Of a stretch of 64,000 nt of DNA, positions 1 to 38,252 are shown in pieces (within the stretch, counting starts at the first letter, position 1; each line of letters opens with the position of its first letter). The notes beneath the pieces were generated by a model that had not been told where the DNA came from, searched no databases, and was given only the letters and a program-made list of their open reading frames with translations. The position numbers and the translations under genes are program-made. This DNA comes from Trueperaceae bacterium (GTDB lineage: Bacteria; Deinococcota; Deinococci; Deinococcales; Trueperaceae): assembly GCA_965213925.1 (NCBI GenBank), contig OZ243927.1, positions 256,001 to 320,000 of the forward strand, written 5' to 3'.

Positions 1-3174
<3,174 letters not shown>

Positions 3175-3224
3175 TCAGCCTGCCTTTTGAAGTGCACCTT
3201 TTACCCGTGCGCCTTGCCGAAACC

Positions 3225-3356
3225 AAAAAAAACACCACCCAACTGGGGCAGCGTCAAGGTCGCGCAGATATAGAAATCCGCGCTATTTTGTAAAAGGCGA
3301 AGCTAAGTAGCCTCTCATATCACCAAAGTTTAGCGCGGCAGCGAAGGCGATGTCAA
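3225..3356 (-). promoter_or_regulatory. pheST promoter and leader with terminator-like hairpin (possible attenuator)
   Basis: Minus strand: TTGACA (3356-3351)-N18-TAAACT (3332-3327); short ORF 3318-3283; hairpin GACGCTGCCC/GGGTGGTGTT followed by a U-run ending near 3225. Confidence 0.55.
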
Positions 3357-3677
3357 TCTCGAGCCGCGCTAGGGAGGGTTAGGACGGCTCTAGGGACAAG
3401 AACCGCAAGGGGTTCGCCTGCGGCACCTAGCCTCTACATCCGCTTTCATTAAAAATATATGTGAGTTAGATAAAGCTAATTTTTCAAAATACTGATTCGA
3501 GTTACAATTTGCTGTCGAAGCATTTTGCAAATCGACTTGTAGGTTCCGCACAAATCAAGCGGCAAGAGTCGAAAGTGGCGTACTACACAGACGTCGGCTA
3601 TTTTACTCCCGCCACACCTCGCGTGTTGTATAGTGTAGAATAATTAAGGGAAGATTAAGACGTCAAGTTAAGGGGCA

Positions 3678-4619
3678 GTGAGAAGAGAGGGAGTTATGCT
3701 CATCAACGCAGCGCCGCCAGTCAACCATTCACCGCCACCGAACCGTTTGGCGTGCGTGATTGATGAACCGCTGCTGGCGTGGCGCAGGCTCGAGACGACA
3801 CCCCTTAACGCCGCCTATTACCTCCTTCTAGCGGACGGACGAGAACAGGTTTTGTGGATCAACCAGCGCGACCAGGAGCCCAGGGTCGAGCGCTACGTCG
3901 CCGCAATCGACCTCTTGCCCAACCTCACGCCGCCTTTAGTTCGCGCGGACACGAGTGGCGAGCGGCTCGAGTACCCCTACCTCATCACCGAATACCTGCC
4001 CGAACCCACCTTAAAAGAGGCGTGGTCAAACCTAGATGCCGCGCAGAAGGAGCAAGCCGCACGTTCTTGGGGACACGCGCTTCGCCTCATCCACCGCGTC
4101 CGCTTCGAGTGGGCAGGCGATCTGGCGTACCCGGAAGCGCAGGGGCAACGTTTGGGTGACTATTTAGAGGCTTCGTGGCGGAACCTCTTGCCGAGTGTGT
4201 TAGATGATGGCGCAGTGGACGCCGCAGCCTTGATAGAGGTGCTGCAGCGCACACGCGCGCTGCTCGAGGACGCACCCGTCACCCTCTGCCACGGCAACGC
4301 CGCCGCTAAAAACGTTCTTTGGTCGGCGGAGCGCTCGCGCATCGTCGCCTCTGTAGACTTCAAGCGGGCTCAGCGCAGCGACCCGATGACCGACCTCGCC
4401 GCGCTCTGGGACGAGGTGCACACGCTTGGCTACGAAGACGCCTTTTTGAGAGGCTACGGCGCGCTCTCCCACTGGGAGAAGAGGCGCTTAGAGGTTTATA
4501 AGCTCCACCACGCCCTAGCGAGTTACGCGGACGCGCTCGCTTCGGACCCACGCCAAGTTGCGCGGTGGCGGCAGCGCCTAGCGGAAACGGTACAAGAGAC
4601 TGCGCTTCTCTCCTACTAA
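3678..4619 (+). CDS. Aminoglycoside phosphotransferase (APH/kinase-like) family protein
   Basis: YPYLITEYLP, LCHGNAAAKNVL (Brenner-like motif, usual Asp is Asn), VDF and DPMTDLA motifs. Confidence 0.7.
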   Translation: MRREGVMLINAAPPVNHSPPPNRLACVIDEPLLAWRRLETTPLNAAYYLLLADGREQVLWINQRDQEPRVERYVAAIDLLPNLTPPLVRADTSGERLEYPYLITEYLPEPTLKEAWSNLDAAQKEQAARSWGHALRLIHRVRFEWAGDLAYPEAQGQRLGDYLEASWRNLLPSVLDDGAVDAAALIEVLQRTRALLEDAPVTLCHGNAAAKNVLWSAERSRIVASVDFKRAQRSDPMTDLAALWDEVHTLGYEDAFLRGYGALSHWEKRRLEVYKLHHALASYADALASDPRQVARWRQRLAETVQETALLSY

Positions 4620-4749
4620 CCGATCGATGAAGAATCTCGTTTAGCTACTGCCAAAACTCTGTGTGCGTCTCCCGCCTTTGGCAGAAGCCTTTCCGGGAAA
4701 CCATATGAGCTTGGCTTCGCTGAGACGGAAACTTCGTTAGCTTTTCACG

Positions 4750-4782
4750 TAAGGACCTGCGAAGCAGGCGCGCAGGTCCTTA
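4750..4782. terminator. Strong hairpin, probable terminator
   Basis: TAAGGACCTGCG-N9-CGCAGGTCCTTA, a perfect 12-bp stem downstream of the APH gene. Confidence 0.5.
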
Positions 4783-4906
4783 TACGGATTCCGGGTGAAT
4801 CCATTACAAAATGCATCCGCATTTTTCCGTTACTCACCGGAATCCGTAGCTGTTTCTACTCGCTACGCTCGGGTTAATTCTTTTAGGAATTAACCGGAAA
4901 GGGTAT
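4782..4906 (+). repeat. Small palindromic repeat, family B (ATACGGATTCCG...CGGAATCCGTA...CCGGAAAGGGTAT)
   Basis: Related copies at 26272-26575 and 38331-38491 (inverted), plus a fragment at 30806. Confidence 0.75.
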
Positions 4907-4973
4907 TACTTCGTAGAGCTTCGCGCACCTCAGGGAGAACGTTCACTCTCAATCAGGCGAGAAGGCGGATACA

Positions 4974-5078
4974 GAGATCCTTCACTTCACGGAGCCTGTC
5001 CTGTTCACGAAGTCGCTAGCGGGACGCGCCACGCGGACGCGTAGCCTTGCTTGCCGAAGAGTTCCGTTCAGAATGACA
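4974..5078 (+). repeat. REP-like element, family C (GAGATCCTTCAC...GTTCAGAATGACA)
   Basis: Similar to 19505-19559; its internal CTGTTCACGAAGT module also occurs near 19382. Confidence 0.65.
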
Positions 5079-5143
5079 ACAGTGTTTGTATGTAACCGAA
5101 TAGAATAGGCAACTATCACCTCTCTGCATGATAGCGTGACCTC

Positions 5144-6232
5144 ATGATTCATCCCCTGCACGAAAAATACGCCAAACTTTTAGTCGAATACTGCACCAGC
5201 GTCCAAGAAGGCGAGAACGTCTCTGTCAACGTAGACACGCCCGCCGAGCCGATGGCGCGGGCTGTCGTCCGTGAAGTTTTACGCGCAGGCGGCAACCCCG
5301 TGCTGCACATGAACTACCCGGAGTTGACGGAGGACGTGCTCGAGCTTGCCCCCGACTCTTACTACGACGCCGAGCCGACCCTGGCGCTCAGTGAAATTAA
5401 ACAAATCGACGCCTTTATCCGCGTGGGCGCACCCATGAATAGCCGCGCTTTGCAAAACGCCGACAAAAGTAAGGTTTCCCGCCTGCAGAAGAAAAACCGC
5501 CCCGTCCAAAACATCCGCGTGCGCGAGACCAAGTGGTGCGGCACGCTCTACCCGACGCCTTCGGGCGCACAGGACGCGGGCATGAGCGTGTCCGAGTATG
5601 AAAACTTCGTCTACGGCGCGATGTTCTTATTCGACGACGACCCCGTCGCTAAGTGGAAGGAGATTCACGATTTCCAAGCGCACCTCATCGAGCATTTGAG
5701 CCGTGCCAAAGAGGTCCATATTAAAGCGGAAGGAACCGACCTCAAACTGAACGTGGGCGGACGCACTTGGATCAACAGCGATGGACACAAGAACATGCCC
5801 TCAGGCGAGGTCTTCACAGGTCCGATTGAGGACAGCGCGGACGGGCACATCACCTACACGGTCCCTAGCGCGGTGCGCGGCGTCGAAGTCGAGAATATCC
5901 GCGTGACCTTTGAAAACGGTAAAGCCGTGAAAGCCGAAGCGGAGAAGGGCGACGACCTCTTGCAGTCGCAGTTAGATACCGACGAAGGCGCACGCTTCTT
6001 GGGCGAACTCGGCATCGGCACGAACTACAACATCCAAATTCCGACCAAGAGCATCCTCTATGACGAGAAAATCGGTGGGACGGTGCACCTGGCGCTCGGG
6101 CAGTCGTATCAGGAGACGGGCGGGACGAACGAGTCGGCGATTCACTGGGATATGATTTGTGACCTTAGAAAAGGTGGGGTGATTTATTTGGATGGGGAGT
6201 TGTTTCAGGAGGATGGGGAGTTTAAGGTTTAG
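5144..6232 (+). CDS. Aminopeptidase, M29 (AmpT/PepS-like) family
   Basis: NMPSGEVFTGP, GELGIGTN, LYDEKIGGTVHLALG and SAIHWDMI motifs; leaderless TAGCGT-N6-ATG. Confidence 0.93.
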   Translation: MIHPLHEKYAKLLVEYCTSVQEGENVSVNVDTPAEPMARAVVREVLRAGGNPVLHMNYPELTEDVLELAPDSYYDAEPTLALSEIKQIDAFIRVGAPMNSRALQNADKSKVSRLQKKNRPVQNIRVRETKWCGTLYPTPSGAQDAGMSVSEYENFVYGAMFLFDDDPVAKWKEIHDFQAHLIEHLSRAKEVHIKAEGTDLKLNVGGRTWINSDGHKNMPSGEVFTGPIEDSADGHITYTVPSAVRGVEVENIRVTFENGKAVKAEAEKGDDLLQSQLDTDEGARFLGELGIGTNYNIQIPTKSILYDEKIGGTVHLALGQSYQETGGTNESAIHWDMICDLRKGGVIYLDGELFQEDGEFKV

Positions 6233-6262
6233 GGTTTAGGAACTTGTTAGGAGGATAGGCGT

Positions 6263-6934
6263 TTGAGCAAGTGCATGAAGCACCCTGTCATCACTAATCA
6301 GAAAATTGTGGATAAAGTTGTTTCGCGGCGCGGCAGGCTCCACGCTTTTGAAACTATTCGTCCGCGAAGCACGGCTTTAGTAGTTATTGACATGATGCGT
6401 GCTTCTACCGAGAACGATGCTTGGTGCCAAGCGATGATTCCTGGTATCAATCAGTTAGCACAAAGACTTCGCGATAAAGGGGGCGCGGTGGCGTGGGTGA
6501 CCGTTAGAAGCGATCAGGTTTGGAACAACCATGCTGCAGTCTTCGGTGAAGAGATAGCGCGAACCTTTCACGAAAGGGCGCAAGCCGACGACCCGCGTTC
6601 ACAGCTTCCCGAATCGCTTACTGTGTGCGACACAGATATCCATTCGGCCAAGCTAGGTTTTAGCGCTTTCTTTCCAGGGCGTTCAGATTTGCATGAACAG
6701 CTTGTAGAACGAGAGGTTGATACCGTACTCATCTGCGGCACAGTAACTAACATTTGTTGCGAATCATCTGCGCGTGATGCGGTGGAACTTGGCTACCGCG
6801 TCATCATGATCTCGGATTTGAACATAGGTCATGGACACGGTTTGCACGAAGCAGCGCTGACAACGTTTTATAGGACGTTTGGCGATGTGCGTCCCTCGCA
6901 AGAGGTCAGTCAGTTGCTCGAAAATGAGAGTTGA
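6263..6934 (+). CDS. Isochorismatase-family cysteine hydrolase (start may be ATG 6275)
   Basis: TALVVIDM, K..FSAFF and GTVTNICCESSARDA motifs. Confidence 0.88.
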   Translation: MSKCMKHPVITNQKIVDKVVSRRGRLHAFETIRPRSTALVVIDMMRASTENDAWCQAMIPGINQLAQRLRDKGGAVAWVTVRSDQVWNNHAAVFGEEIARTFHERAQADDPRSQLPESLTVCDTDIHSAKLGFSAFFPGRSDLHEQLVEREVDTVLICGTVTNICCESSARDAVELGYRVIMISDLNIGHGHGLHEAALTTFYRTFGDVRPSQEVSQLLENES

Positions 6935-6942
6935 TAGTTAGG

Positions 6943-6977
6943 CTCGAGCCCCAACCCGCAACTCAGAAGCTCGAGCC
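6943..6977 (+). repeat. 35-bp direct repeat, copy 1 (CTCGAGCCCCAACCCGCAACTCAGAAGCTCGAGCC)
   Basis: 31/35 identical to 9319-9353 and 26/35 to 8425-8459 (manual alignment). Confidence 0.75.
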
Positions 6978-7029
6978 CCATGCTAAACTAGACATCTGTA
7001 GAAGGTCCACCATCTACTGAGATAGGTGA

Positions 7030-33696: not shown

Positions 33697-34422
33697 GTGC
33701 GCGTGGCAATCATTGCTGACATCCAAGGAAACGCTGTAGCTCTGGAGCAGGTACTCCTTCATATGCGCCGGCTAGACATCGATGAAGTCGTGTGTTTGGG
33801 CGACGTCGCCTCCGGTCCCGAGCCGGGCGCGGTGCTCGAGCTTCTCCGTCTACACAGATGCCACACGGTGCTTGGGAACATGGACGCGGTTATCCTCGAG
33901 CCAAGGTCTTACACAGACCTTGGCGAAGCGGAACACAAGTACGCCGAGATGGACGTTTGGTGCCACGCGCAGCTCTCGGAAGTGGATAAAGCCTTTATGC
34001 ACTCGTTCGAACCGACCGTTTCGGTCGAGCTGGGCGGTGAAGTAACACTTCTCTGCTGTCACGGCTCGCCGCTCTCTTTTGACGACGTCATCGAGGTAAC
34101 GACGTCGGAAGACGAGCTGGCGCAGTACTTCCAGGGCATTGCGGCGCAGCTCCTGGCGACCGGGCATATGCACAATCCCATGCTGCGGCGTTACCGTGAC
34201 GCAACGCTATTCAACCCTGGCAGCGTGGGCTTTCCCAATCTGCGGGTCGCAGGCGAGAAGCGGCCTCTGGTAGCCTCTTACGTGGTCGTTCAGCGAGAGC
34301 GAGGCACGGTAGATGTCGCGTTCTACAGCGTTCCTTACGCTCCTGAGGTGTTCGCGGCGCAGGTCTTGCGAAGCGGCGTGCCCCATGTTGCCTGGTTCTT
34401 GAGCGAGTGGAGTCTTGAGTAG
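33697..34422 (+). CDS. Metallophosphoesterase (YfcE/PPP-like)
   Basis: IADIQGN, CLGDV, GNMD, CHGSP, TGHMH and NPGSVG motifs; leaderless TACACT-N6-GTG. Confidence 0.88.
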   Translation: MRVAIIADIQGNAVALEQVLLHMRRLDIDEVVCLGDVASGPEPGAVLELLRLHRCHTVLGNMDAVILEPRSYTDLGEAEHKYAEMDVWCHAQLSEVDKAFMHSFEPTVSVELGGEVTLLCCHGSPLSFDDVIEVTTSEDELAQYFQGIAAQLLATGHMHNPMLRRYRDATLFNPGSVGFPNLRVAGEKRPLVASYVVVQRERGTVDVAFYSVPYAPEVFAAQVLRSGVPHVAWFLSEWSLE

Positions 34423-34734
34423 AACACCTCCTTCTATGCAAGCAAGACTTAGCGAAACGACAATTATTGGTTCGTCCGGTAAATCATGTGCAGGTTCCGA
34501 AATCGAGTTTTCGCGTTGCGAACGCAAGCCAACGGACCAATAAACGGTAGCGAACTTGCCGGAACCAAGTATGTCAAGAGCAAGGCCCTAGGGAAGGAAC
34601 TGAACCGATTGGAACGCTGTGAACTGGCGAGCTGTCAATTGGCGGGTTCGCAATCTGAGAGGGCGAATCTTCAGGGCTACTACGAGCTTATCGCGGTAGC
34701 TTCGTGATTGGCTTGAGCCGTGTGCGGTGAAAGT

Positions 34735-37170
34735 GTGCGCCGTGGTGCGCATTGAGTGAATTGCCAACGGAGTTGGCCGGGGTTCAGGGCAAACGACCCC
34801 GAGGCGGATGCCTAACCTGAGCTCGAAAGGAGGGAGGGGACAAGAGCATGGCATTAAAGCGGAGCGCAAAGGAAGACGTGTACGATGCGGCTCTGCAACG
34901 CCTGAATGATAAGGCTAAGACTGGATTGTTTGAACGCCAATAGCCAGCGGTGGTCACGCACACCCGTCGGTAGCACGTCTGTACACCGACGCCATCAGGA
35001 CATTTGGATTCAAGTTTCGTCCAAATGACGCTCTGCTTGATGGGCGATGAACAATGAGTTCATCCAAGGCTATGAGTGGCGAGCCTAAGTCGTTCTAGCA
35101 CGTTCCTCAGTGACGAAACACGGGATTGCCTAAGGGACGCGAGTCCTAAGGTAACGGAGGTCTCGTAGTAGTCGTGGGCGTCACGCCCCACCAGGGAGAG
35201 CGGGAGAGCCGTTCGCAGGGCGAAGGAGACCAGGTAATCATGATGGAAAGGAACTGTGAGGTACGCGAGATGCGAACCGCCGAAACGGTACTCACCATCC
35301 TACGTGAACGCGGCCAGCGTGGCCTGCCGGTTAAAAGGGTGTATCGCCTACTCTACCGGCCTGACCTCTACCTGCGCGCCTACGCCAAGCTCTACAAGAA
35401 CGAAGGCGCACTGACACCAGGTGCCTCGGACGAAACCGTGGACGGGATGTCCCTAGCGAAAATTGATACCATCATCGAGGCGCTACGCCAAGAGCGGTAT
35501 CGGTGGACGCCGGTACGACGCCGTTACATTCCCAAAAAGAATGGCAAGATGCGGCCTCTAGGGATGCCTTCCTGGTCGGACAAACTTCTTCAAGAAGTTA
35601 TCCGCTCCATCCTGGAAGCCTATTATGAACCGCGGTTCAGCGACCGTTCTCACGGCTTTCGACCGAAACGGGGATGCCACACAGCTTTGCGCAAAGTCAC
35701 CCAAGAGGGTCGAGGTACAAAGTGGTTTATCGAGGGAGATATCTGCTCGTGTTTCGACAAGATTAACTTCGATGTCTTGTTGAACATCTTGCAGAAGAGC
35801 TTCCACGACAACCGCTTCCTGCGGCTTATCAAGGGGCTGCTCGAAGCTGGCTACCTGGAGAACTGGACCTTTCACCAGACCTACAGCGGTGTGCCGCAAG
35901 GGTCGATTGTCGGTCCAATCCTCACCAACCTGGTTCTGGACAGGCTGGACAAGTTTGTCGAGCACGAACTGATACCAGCTTACACACGCGGCGAACGCCG
36001 CAAGACCTACCCCCCGTATGTCGCCATCGCCAAAGCCGCTCACGACGCTCGGAAAGCAGGGAACTGGGAGACCGCGCGGCAACTGAGCCAGCAGGCCCAG
36101 ACAATGCCGTCGCGCGACCCCGATGACCCGAACTTCCGGCGATTGTGGTACCAAAGGTATGCCGATGACTTTCTGCTGGGGCTGAAAGGGCCAAAAGACG
36201 AGGCCGTGGCTATCAAGCAAGAGATTGCCGCCTTCTTACGCGACGAACTCAAGCTTGAGCTTAGCGAGGATAAGACCCTGCTGACCCACGCGCGCACGCA
36301 GAAAGCGCGTTTCCTGGGCTATGAGGTCCACATTCTTCACGCTGACGATAAACACGACCACCGGGGACAACGCTGCATCAACGGCAGCGTCGGACTCCGG
36401 GTACCGTCGCACGTCATGAAAGCGCACTGCGCCAAGTACATGCGACGCGGCAAGCCCATTCACCTCCCACAAAGGCTCAGCAGCGATGCTTACAGCATCG
36501 TCAGCCAATATCAAGCGGAATACCGCGGGGTCGTGCAGTATTACCGCATGGCCTACAACCTCCACACGCTGGGCCGACTCAAGCGCGTCACAGAACTCTC
36601 GCTAGTGAAAACGCTGGCGAATAAGTTCAGGACGAGTTGCCAGAAAATCTATCGGCGCTACCGCACCACCATCGACCTCAAGGAGGGCAGCTATAAAGTC
36701 CTTCAAGTCAAAGTGGACCGTGGTCCTAAAAAGAAGCCACTCATCACCCACTTTGGCGGCATCCCGTTACGGTGGAACAAATGGGTAGCCTTGGACGACA
36801 ACCAGAACAGTAAGATTTGGAACGGGCGTAATGAAGTGGTGGACCGCCTTTTAGCGCAAAGCTGTGAGCTTTGTGGGTCGGTGGAGCACGTCGAAGTGCA
36901 TCACGTCCGAAAACTGGCAGACCTTGAACAAAGAGGGCGTAAGTCACGGCCCGAATGGATGCAAAGGATGTCGGCTCGCCGACGCAAGACGCTGGTGGTC
37001 TGCCTCACCTGCCACCAAGACATCCATAAAGGGCACTACCACGGGAAAGGACTTTCATGTTGAGATTACTGGAGAGCCCCGTGACACGGAAAGCGGTCAT
37101 GCGGGGTTCGGAGGGGGGATGTTGGAAAAGCGCTATCTTTGATAGGCAGCTCGCTGGCATCCTACCCTAC
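34735..37170 (+). mobile_element. Inner group IIA intron (ML class, LtrA-like IEP)
   Basis: 5' GTGCG at 34735; domain V at 37074-37109; domain VI with bulged A at 37164; 3' end CCCTAC; RT ORF inside. Confidence 0.93.
35270..37063 (+). CDS. ltrA: Group II intron reverse transcriptase/maturase with C-terminal HNH endonuclease
   Basis: YIPKKNGKMRPLG, SHGFRPKRGCHTAL, GVPQGS and RYADDF motifs, a maturase region, and CELC...HHVRKL...CLTCH..IH; likely start MRTAETVL after GAGG. Confidence 0.95.
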   Translation: MRTAETVLTILRERGQRGLPVKRVYRLLYRPDLYLRAYAKLYKNEGALTPGASDETVDGMSLAKIDTIIEALRQERYRWTPVRRRYIPKKNGKMRPLGMPSWSDKLLQEVIRSILEAYYEPRFSDRSHGFRPKRGCHTALRKVTQEGRGTKWFIEGDICSCFDKINFDVLLNILQKSFHDNRFLRLIKGLLEAGYLENWTFHQTYSGVPQGSIVGPILTNLVLDRLDKFVEHELIPAYTRGERRKTYPPYVAIAKAAHDARKAGNWETARQLSQQAQTMPSRDPDDPNFRRLWYQRYADDFLLGLKGPKDEAVAIKQEIAAFLRDELKLELSEDKTLLTHARTQKARFLGYEVHILHADDKHDHRGQRCINGSVGLRVPSHVMKAHCAKYMRRGKPIHLPQRLSSDAYSIVSQYQAEYRGVVQYYRMAYNLHTLGRLKRVTELSLVKTLANKFRTSCQKIYRRYRTTIDLKEGSYKVLQVKVDRGPKKKPLITHFGGIPLRWNKWVALDDNQNSKIWNGRNEVVDRLLAQSCELCGSVEHVEVHHVRKLADLEQRGRKSRPEWMQRMSARRRKTLVVCLTCHQDIHKGHYHGKGLSC

Positions 37171-37289
37171 CGCACGCACGGCTCTTAGGGGGCGGGAGAC
37201 CGTCACCGGTCTCCCGCTACCCGACCTTGCGCACAGCCACCCCGTGCGGCGACACGGTAACTTCTATTGCCAATAGGTAAGCTCGTGGT

Positions 37290-38252
37290 GTGAGTAGACA
37301 GAAAGTCAGCCCCGTCCAAACCCTTGTCGCCTCCTTGCTGCGCGGCGCACTCAAGCTCGGCTTTGGTCCGCAGGCGCTTAGCTTAATGAGTCGCTCGATG
37401 AGCGCGCCTAAGCTCAAGCGGCGAGCCTTCGCCGACTATACACCGAACGAACACGACGTGGTCGTCTGCACCTACGCCAAGAGCGGCACCAACTGGATGC
37501 TCCAGATCGTCACGCAAGTCGCGCACCTAGGCGGGGGCGAATTCGAACACATCCACGACCTGGTTCCTTGGCCCGACCCGCCGATGCCAGGCCTCGTAGA
37601 CCTTAAAGAGCCCACTTGGGATAGCGCCCCGACGAAGCTTCGGGCCGTCAAGACGCACTGGGAAGCGCCCTTTGTCCCCTACAACCCGGATGCCCGTTAC
37701 ATCATTGTCGTCCGCGATCCTAAAGACGTGCTCGTATCGAGCTACCACTTCGCTGACAGCATCTTCTCGGGCGTGCGCGAGCACGTATCACCTGAGACTT
37801 GGACGCACCTATTCGCAAGAGGTCGGTCGCCCTTCGGTTCGTGGGCAGCGCACACAGCCAGCTTCTGGCCCTGGCGGGAGCGAACGAACGCACTTTTTGT
37901 CCGCTTCGAGGAGATGAAAGCCGACCTTGAGGGGACGGTGCGGCGTGTTGCCGAGTTCATGGATGTTCCTCTCACGGAAGTACAACTTGGGGAGGTCGTT
38001 CGCAAGAGCAGCTTCAACTACATGAAAGCCATCGACCACAAGTTCGCGCCGCCTTCGGCCGCACCAGGGCGCGAACAGGCCGTCATGTTGCGCAGCGGCG
38101 AGACGGGGCAGGCGAAAGCGTTCCTGAGCGCGGCGCAGCGGCGGGAGGTAGACCGGGCGATGGCGCGAGAAGTCGAGCTACTCGGCTCGGACTTCCCCTT
38201 TGAGCAGTTCTATGGGCGGCAACTTGAGCCGAAACAGGTGGGCGTCACTTAG
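37290..38252 (+). CDS. Sulfotransferase (Sulfotransfer_1)
   Basis: TYAKSGTNW (5'-PSB), KTH, RDPKDVLVS (3'-PB) and RFEEMK motifs; leaderless TAAGCT-N6-GTG. Confidence 0.9.
   Translation: MSRQKVSPVQTLVASLLRGALKLGFGPQALSLMSRSMSAPKLKRRAFADYTPNEHDVVVCTYAKSGTNWMLQIVTQVAHLGGGEFEHIHDLVPWPDPPMPGLVDLKEPTWDSAPTKLRAVKTHWEAPFVPYNPDARYIIVVRDPKDVLVSSYHFADSIFSGVREHVSPETWTHLFARGRSPFGSWAAHTASFWPWRERTNALFVRFEEMKADLEGTVRRVAEFMDVPLTEVQLGEVVRKSSFNYMKAIDHKFAPPSAAPGREQAVMLRSGETGQAKAFLSAAQRREVDRAMAREVELLGSDFPFEQFYGRQLEPKQVGVT

Follow-up and report, generated by a model that had tools for sequence, protein, structure and literature searches.

A group II intron from a lineage that very probably homes to domain V of other group II introns

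Domain V (DV) forms the active site of group II introns and is conserved more strongly than any other part of their sequence. Group II introns are also known to invade one another. In Thermosynechococcus elongatus, TeI3 'F3' introns home to a conserved site within TeI4 'F1' introns, and identical inner copies in diverged outer introns are read there as recent independent insertions (PMC2882425). The introns M.a.I5, UA.I3, P.l.I2 and B.th.I3 (class B-like) are described as inserting into the RYADD-coding motif of other introns' reverse transcriptase (RT) genes (PMC2504315), and nested arrays of group II introns are described in Methanosarcina (PMC4424553). Here we analyse an intron that splits the DV of another intron. 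It lies at 34735-37170 of a 64-kb window, by which we mean the whole stretch of DNA analysed: 64,000 nucleotides from a Trueperaceae bacterium (assembly GCA_965213925.1, contig OZ243927.1, positions 256,001 to 320,000). We consider it very likely that this is a retromobile intron of subgroup IIA and the mitochondrial-like (ML) class, and that it is one of a widespread lineage of introns for which DNA encoding the DV of other group II introns is the natural place to home.

How does this intron compare with the systems already described? Like the inner introns of T. elongatus, its lineage includes identical invaders in diverged hosts, found in a metagenome-assembled genome (MAG) of Chamaesiphon. 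Unlike them, it does not resemble an introns-in-one-genome case: the T. elongatus invaders, as described, are IIB1 introns of the chloroplast-like (CL) class without an open reading frame (ORF), lie in domain IV (DIV) between the first two ATGs of the host's ORF, and come from one genome only. The RYADD lineage shares the specialization of an entire lineage on a conserved, essential motif of other introns, with twintrons as the product. Its target is protein-coding and its members are described without an endonuclease domain, whereas the window lineage targets a catalytic RNA helix and carries an HNH domain. Class C (IIC) introns use transcription-terminator hairpins as landing sites (PMC4424553), and so resemble the window lineage in treating a widespread hairpin-encoding motif as a safe place to land. 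They insert after the stem, without an endonuclease and with short pairing to the intron-binding site (IBS); the window lineage inserts inside the hairpin, with full pairing of both exon-binding sites (EBS1 and EBS2). Other twintrons are placed elsewhere, in domain I in Trichodesmium (PMC4649490) and in DIV in Porphyridium (PMC4476101).

Two further systems complete the comparison. Ll.LtrB of Lactococcus lactis is a IIA intron of the ML class, and its protein is LtrA. The window intron resembles it in the full-length match of the intron-encoded protein (IEP), with RT, maturase (X) and HNH domains; in the presence of EBS2, EBS1 and the EBS1-adjacent position in domain I; and in the spacing of about 1 nucleotide (nt) between IBS2 and IBS1. 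It differs in that its lineage homes to the DV-coding DNA of other introns and not to a host gene, and in that the delta-delta' pairing is only partly supported. An internal intron in DV itself was reportedly found by Copertino and Hallick in 1991, in the psbF twintron of Euglena gracilis; this is said to be a single, degenerate, ORF-less and organellar case, described without a DV-targeting lineage or EBS/IBS logic. Our full-text searches of the literature gave no description of a bacterial DV-homing lineage, and an earlier mention in older papers or in the bacterial group II intron database is possible. Intron-into-intron homing itself is known; what appears to be new is that otherwise standard IIA retrohoming machinery is aimed, throughout a lineage, at an unusual target, the helix that makes up the active site of other introns.

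The invader in the window consists of the following parts (all coordinates are positions within the window, on the + strand).

34735..37170 (+): invading group II intron, IIA/ML type; 2,436 nt, GTGCG start, CCTAC end
35240..37063 (+): IEP with RT, maturase (X) and HNH domains, by domain searches; stop codon included
37074..37109 (+): the invader's own DV, 36 nt, by RF00029 and folding
37112..37170 (+): the invader's domain VI (DVI) and 3' end, by RF00029 and folding

Its ends fit the group II rule (5' GUGYG, 3' AY), with GTGCG at 34735 and ...CTAC at 37170. Both termini are conserved among relatives, and the first 520 nt are 66-78% identical to theirs, in an alignment that starts at position 1. 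The Rfam family RF00029 (DV+DVI) matches 37072-37170 over model positions 1-77, the full model, with 46 bits against a gathering score of 40; this is the sole group II match at gathering score in the 64 kb. The IEP frame is open from 35174, with its first ATG at 35240 and an alternative at 35270, and the protein matches RVT_1 (4e-34), Intron_maturas2 (1e-10) and an AI2M-like HNH domain (8e-14). Because it also matches LtrA (5g2x) in a full-length alignment (residues 32-598, E 9e-116), we assign the intron to the IIA/ML class. For the other group II RTs of solved structure the match is confined to the RT domain, the next best being the GsI-IIC RT at 6e-35. We conclude that 34735-37170 is apparently an intact, endonuclease-bearing IIA/ML intron, for which splicing and mobility are predicted.

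The sequences on either side of the invader belong to a second intron, the host.

34715..34734 (+): host DV 5' half, with the AGC triad, both helices (5' strands), and the GAAA tetraloop plus 2 nt; by folding and a truncated RF00029 match
37171..37184 (+): host DV 3' half, comprising the distal helix (3' strand), the bulge of 2 nt and the proximal helix; by folding and a truncated RF00029 match
37188..37225 (+): host DVI hairpin (37188-37222, bulged A at 37219) and host intron 3' end (...GAC); by folding and RF00029
34423..34714 (+): intergenic stretch before the host DV, possibly a decayed or truncated host body; no intron domains recognised

The 5' junction (34734/34735) reads ...GAGCCGTGTGCGGTGAAAGT followed by GTGCGCC..., and the 3' junction (37170/37171) reads ...CCTACCCTAC followed by CGCACGCACGGCTC... 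Joined by script, the last 20 nt ahead of the intron and the first 14 nt beyond it fold into a canonical DV hairpin of 34 nt (-21.1 kcal/mol) that has an AGC triad, GAAA as its loop and a bulge of 2 nt on the 3' side. Insertion falls between host DV nucleotides 20 and 21, two nt past the tetraloop, and the catalytic triad and the bulge therefore lie on opposite sides of a 2.4-kb insert. The 5' half contains both IBS2 (34720-34726) and IBS1 (34729-34734). Against the DV consensus the two flanks score 13/14 (5' half) and 10/12 (3' half). Truncated RF00029 matches are weak when taken alone: 34713-34740 matches model positions 1-27 with 13.6 bits (E 3.6), and 37171-37225 matches positions 23-77 with 18.6 bits (E 0.078), the top match there. 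The two half-matches together tile the model, which places the predicted 3' end of the outer intron at 37225.

A preliminary description of this DNA, made from its letters and reading frames, had called 34735-37170 a IIA intron that splits a DV and whose precise removal restores a canonical 34-nt hairpin. The LtrA match, the junctions, the tiling half-matches and the DVI-like hairpin with its bulged A bear out each of these points. The same description spoke of a twintron in which the host cannot splice until the invader has. Excision does restore an outer DV and DVI, but there is no functional outer intron in the window. Rfam families for intron domains D1-D4 have no match in the window or in the upstream stretch, at gathering score or at E<=10. 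The fold of the 292 nt ahead of the host DV is no more stable than that of shuffled sequence (z = -0.26), this stretch has no blastn similarity to other hosts outside the DV itself, and neither tblastn nor tblastx found an RT remnant of a host elsewhere in the window. The host here is a dead DV+DVI remnant and not a working twintron; the term fits the locus only historically, and since the host is a remnant, the claim about its splicing is moot here.

The neighbouring genes lie on the same strand: a metallophosphoesterase gene ends at 34422, 292 nt before the host DV, and a sulfotransferase gene begins at 37290. A scan of 34300-37400 for promoters and terminators found nothing better than shuffles. 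With no convincing promoter or terminator in the region, transcripts most likely arise by read-through from the upstream gene. In Microvirga lotononidis a split host DV begins about 30 nt past a tRNA gene (L057:881-1004, tRNA gene at 881-953); this host looks like another remnant. The window also holds a SAM riboswitch (RF00162, 59131-59259, + strand, 54.7 bits against a gathering score of 44.4), which is unrelated to the intron.

Does the lineage share this insertion site? Relatives of the IEP number in the thousands, and the best 120 are 66-76% identical to it. Most of the contigs on which these 120 lie measure only 2-3 kb and are thus roughly intron-sized, as assemblers yield at multi-copy repeats. 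We collected a genome set of 55 loci (IEP identity 61-77%; loci are numbered with an L) from Cyanobacteriota, Alpha- and Gammaproteobacteria (Pseudomonadota), Planctomycetota, Chloroflexota, Bacteroidota, Thermodesulfobacteriota and others, together with a plasmid set of 8 further loci found by tblastn (IEP identity 52-64%). The ends of these introns were located by their likeness to those of the window intron; 51 loci (the window, 42 genome loci and the 8 plasmid loci) have one or both flanks in usable form, the other 13 genome loci being contig ends or truncated copies. Their insertion sites sort as follows.

DV, stringent consensus: 34 loci, by consensus score
DV, canonical hairpin: L009, L010 (14/14 pairs) and L031, L032 (13/14 pairs, with a CGC triad and not AGC)
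DV, probable: L022, L036, L046, whose 3' halves resemble those of other hosts
Not DV: L027, L028, L035, L044, L056, L060, L062, L063
Ambiguous: L029, L045

In all, 41 of the 51 loci (the window and 40 relatives) split a DV at the same place, and in every DV insertion compared the invader lies on the sense strand, two nt 3' of the GNRA tetraloop; 8 sites are not DV and 2 are ambiguous. Among relatives, 23 of the 36 5' flanks and 28 of the 46 3' flanks pass the stringent consensus; of 200,000 random positions, 0.05% pass by chance as a 5' half and 0.12% as a 3' half. Host DVs vary from 34 to 36 nt, so that scoring in a fixed register of 20+14 nt understates likeness to DV; it was used only for loci that fit. 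The mean folding energy is -15.9 kcal/mol for joined flanks and -6.1 kcal/mol for random pseudo-excisions, of which 500 were made. At least 10 pairs across the junction form in 22 of 25 joined flank pairs and also at 98 of 500 random sites, so the energy discriminates better. Cultured carriers with a DV insertion include Nostoc foliaceum FACHB-393 (L011), Fischerella muscicola and Spirosoma endophyticum DSM 26130 (L033), the first and the last of which carry a complete twintron, and DV-inserted plasmid copies occur in Priestia filamentosa, Microvirga lotononidis, a Streptomyces plasmid and a Salmonella plasmid. The expectation of the preliminary description that flanks of homologues would prove to be split DV sequences thus holds at these 41 loci; insertion of homologues at unrelated sites, also looked for, is not the case for them, and is seen at the other 8.

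One could still imagine that the window insertion was a one-off, ectopic event in a DV that happened to resemble the real homing site of a lineage without any DV preference. The imperfect EBS1 pairing of the window intron (5 of 6 pairs, see below) would fit such an event, as would the relatives that insert elsewhere (L027, L028, L035, L044, L056, L062). An accident of this kind hardly explains why the same nucleotide position of DV is occupied at 41 of 51 loci, in at least six phyla and in many different DV sequences. In a tree of the relatives, moreover, the non-DV intron L044 is the sister of the DV-inserted L043 with 100/100 support and is nested in a DV-homing clade, so that the L044 site is derived. 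We regard a one-off insertion as barely credible. The tree left out L021 (inner), L024, L025, L027, L028 and L035, whose high-scoring segment pairs contain stop codons, and near-identical copies (L003, L008-L010, L032) were removed from it; it also labels as DV L012 (only 6 nt of flank), L013 (no mapped flank), and L017 and L026 (3' flank only).

Two Rickettsiales introns with 64-65% identity, L028:4342 and L056:2495, are inserted at one and the same site outside DV. Their 5' exons have ...CGTAATCCA... in common, and the site lies in the gene of an HU-family DNA-binding protein (annotated coding sequence 2291-2539 at L056), and the EBS1 and EBS2 of both are retuned to this shared site. On Calothrix and Nostoc plasmids, L060:1002-3406 and L063:1004-3407 (IEP identity 52-55%) lie inside the RT gene of another intron. 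Their insertion point is identical, splitting the codons of LDIEKC/FD at the slash, with annotated reverse-transcriptase fragments on both sides. By their sequences these two represent a second intron-targeting specificity among ML relatives. They are the only relatives found in an RT motif, which is not RYADD, and RYADD-type homing to RT ORFs is not what the window intron does.

A second alternative accepts the shared site and denies the targeting: a single ancient twintron might have been inherited or moved as a composite, the inner intron never having chosen DV. L009 and L010 do share a host DV 5' half, and the flanks of L031 and L032 are 71-82% identical, compatible with duplication of a composite. 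The hosts as a group tell against it. At the DV-type sites, 27 different sequences of the 5' half and 35 of the 3' half occur; hosts vary widely in DV, DVI and IEP class, one of them having a CGC triad; and, as set out below, the EBS sequences follow the local target. Invaders that are 100% identical also sit in different hosts, which is indirect evidence of mobility. One Chamaesiphon MAG holds four invader copies that are identical over 2,428 nt, while their surroundings are 53-69% identical over 600 nt upstream and 48-55% over 300 nt downstream, and the L002/L003 pair shows the same combination of like invaders and diverged flanks. Such copies within a genome are, as judged from these comparisons, recent, independent insertions. 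We give the composite explanation very little weight.

What kinds of intron serve as hosts? Complete twintrons were found at L020, L021, L023, L025 and other related loci. At L021 the outer intron is complete (2157-7005), with a GTGCG start, a 590-amino-acid LtrA-like IEP, its own 3' end and an ordinary insertion site. Its IEP is closest to LtrA and 50% identical to the invader's. The hosts at L023 and L025 have strong matches to RF02012 (D1-D4), an RT upstream, a split DV and no intact DV of their own. Host IEPs at L009 and L023 are closest to 6me0, which we take to be TeI4h, a chloroplast-like intron, and that at L020 is closest to no single class. By these comparisons, host IEPs come from at least three classes. 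Among DV-type loci with at least 2 kb upstream, 11 of 23 have an RT-like ORF upstream on the same strand.

Several hosts add details. Directly upstream of the invader at L005:1888-2082 and L030:3994-4692, the C-terminus of the host IEP is ML-like, with 51-57% identity to the invader's IEP. Since these hosts are ML-like, as at L021, the lineage also invades introns of its own class. At L008 (4445-4465 / 6894-6907) the host DV halves mismatch, with 9/14 pairs, and the 5' half is the same as in L009 and L010; twintron copies may thus have recombined with one another by way of the 2.4-kb invader, which is identical in them. At L010:6894-6915 a 13-nt DV 3' half is followed by TGTGCGG..., with no further DV match downstream in the locus, and TGTGCGG... 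could mark the start of one more intron inserted here.

How would the invader read its target? Two candidate elements in domain I face the host DV.

34957..34963 (+): candidate EBS2, CGCACAC; 7/7 pairs with target positions -15 to -9; same register across relatives, including the non-DV loci L027 and L028
35013..35018 (+): candidate EBS1, AGTTTC; in the 11-nt terminal loop of the stem 35001-35008/35020-35027

EBS2 is the exact reverse complement of GTGTGCG (34720-34726), and EBS1 faces GAAAGT. In a consensus fold of 26 distinct relatives, EBS1 occupies the terminal loop of a long stem, in which 22 of 31 pairs show compensatory changes, and EBS2 lies in and beside a small hairpin loop. The register is fixed: EBS1 (NNTTTC) faces target positions -6 to -1 (IBS1, the GAAA loop plus 2 nt), and EBS2 faces positions from about -16 to -7, in the 5' strand of the DV helices. 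We compared pairing at the actual sites with pairing to permuted targets, in tests that ignore kinship among the sequences.

EBS1, all sites: 5.22/6 pairs observed, 4.57 with permuted targets; observed value reached by 0 of 10,000 permutations
EBS2, all sites: 5.96/10 observed, 5.16 permuted; reached by 0 of 10,000
EBS1, DV sites only: 5.12/6 observed, 4.75 permuted; reached by 33 of 10,000
EBS2, DV sites only: 6.00/10 observed, 5.49 permuted; reached by 46 of 10,000

Individual introns make the point more sharply. L031 and L032 pair a retuned EBS1, CGTCTC, with GAGACG; at non-DV sites, retuned EBS1 sequences pair 7/7 (L027), 6/6 (L044) and 6/6 (L028); and EBS2 follows the local target at L027, L028, L038 and L039. 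These retuned copies are the clearest evidence for the proposed EBS/IBS pairing with the target. Both elements had been put forward in the preliminary description, EBS2 as fully complementary to 34720-34726 and EBS1 as a stem-loop sequence pairing 5/6 with GAAAGT, along with the suggestion that they might covary with the targets of homologues. Comparative folding and covariation uphold both, and the covariation extends to sites outside DV.

In IIA/ML introns the nucleotide 5' of EBS1 pairs with position +1 of the 3' exon (delta-delta'), replacing EBS3-IBS3. The candidate delta nucleotide pairs at L004, L006, L011, L018, L020, L027, L031 and L039, and does not at L001, L014, L015, L021, L023 and L025.

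These data bear on a third alternative, that the targeting is real and depends chiefly on the IEP, or on recognition of DV DNA by its hairpin or cruciform shape, with EBS-IBS pairing secondary (class C introns use terminator stems in this way); in a variant, the intron reverse-splices into host intron RNA and its cDNA recombines. The target is indeed an imperfect palindrome. Outside the IBS, conservation is high at positions -20 to -17 (GAGC) and +3 to +13, where the protein could make contact, and EBS2 pairs poorly at several insertions. Against this, EBS1 and EBS2 covary with their targets, and do so most clearly at L027, L028 and L044, non-DV sites that have no DV hairpin. The LtrA-like architecture of the IEP, with its HNH domain, also fits the classical DNA-target pathway. 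On balance we think a mainly shape- or protein-based choice of target unlikely.

A number of observations weigh against DV homing by base pairing as the habit of this lineage, and deserve to be set out together. The 8 non-DV and 2 ambiguous sites among the 51 make DV specificity a strong tendency and no rule, and 7 of the 41 DV calls fall below the stringent threshold and were accepted for the complementarity of their hairpin or because they resemble other hosts. In the window, EBS1 makes only 5 of 6 pairs and the candidate delta nucleotide, A at 35012, fails to pair with the C at +1. Pairing of EBS2 is poor, at 3-4/10, at L002, L003, L004, L019 and L020, and the permutation tests take no account of kinship. 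Identical copies in MAGs may in part reflect repeats that collapsed during assembly. No RT was found by tblastn in 12 of the 23 hosts with at least 2 kb upstream, so that many may be dead or ORF-less. Finally, the 64-kb window has one copy of the invader only, and that copy sits in a remnant host.

If DV is the target, what keeps the invader from its own DV? The invader's DV, in the window (37074-37109) and in 24 relatives, has a conserved, atypical distal helix. In a comparison anchored on the DV loop, covering 22 distinct intron/site combinations, an invader's own DV forms a mean of 1.95/10 pairs with its own EBS2, against 5.91/10 for the host DV; the window intron's EBS2 pairs at 2/10 positions with the 5' strand of its own DV and at 7 with the host's. 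These values are suggestive of a diverged DV that protects the invader from self-invasion, and through shared ancestry they amount to one or a few independent observations.

The pathway we envisage follows that of Ll.LtrB. A particle of lariat and IEP would reverse-splice into the top strand, the HNH domain would nick the bottom strand a few nt downstream, within the 3' strand of DV, and the RT would copy the intron by target-primed reverse transcription. With the halves of DV 2.4 kb apart, the host ribozyme would fold only once the invader had been precisely spliced out. Because the invader separates these halves, splicing would be ordered, the inner intron before the outer. In the window the invader would persist in the leftovers of a dead host, probably transcribed by read-through.

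Targeting of DV may make good sense for a selfish element. As the most conserved sequence of group II introns, and one that multiplies with its host, DV would be a near-universal, self-renewing target, harmless to the cell and available at no cost to it. Homing to DV would help explain the frequent intron remnants and the short, broken contigs around these elements. It also has consequences for annotation: invaded hosts lose their Rfam DV match, so that pipelines anchored on DV miss them, and one published pipeline is described as unable to detect the outer introns of twintrons (PMC8919778). The pairing scheme, in which EBS1 would read the GNRA loop and EBS2 the DV stem, would be a natural intron-specific targeting module that is open to study or re-use. 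More speculatively, and with doubts that slightly outweigh our confidence, we suggest that these introns form a cosmopolitan IIA/ML clade of obligate 'introns of introns', which may have DV homes in at least three classes, their own included, be protected from themselves by a diverged DV, and gate or kill the host ribozyme, acting as natural hyperparasites with an influence on how many group II introns bacterial genomes carry and how fast these turn over. Splitting the active site of the host would make the host's activity depend on splicing of the invader, a clear natural case of parasitism among selfish ribozymes.

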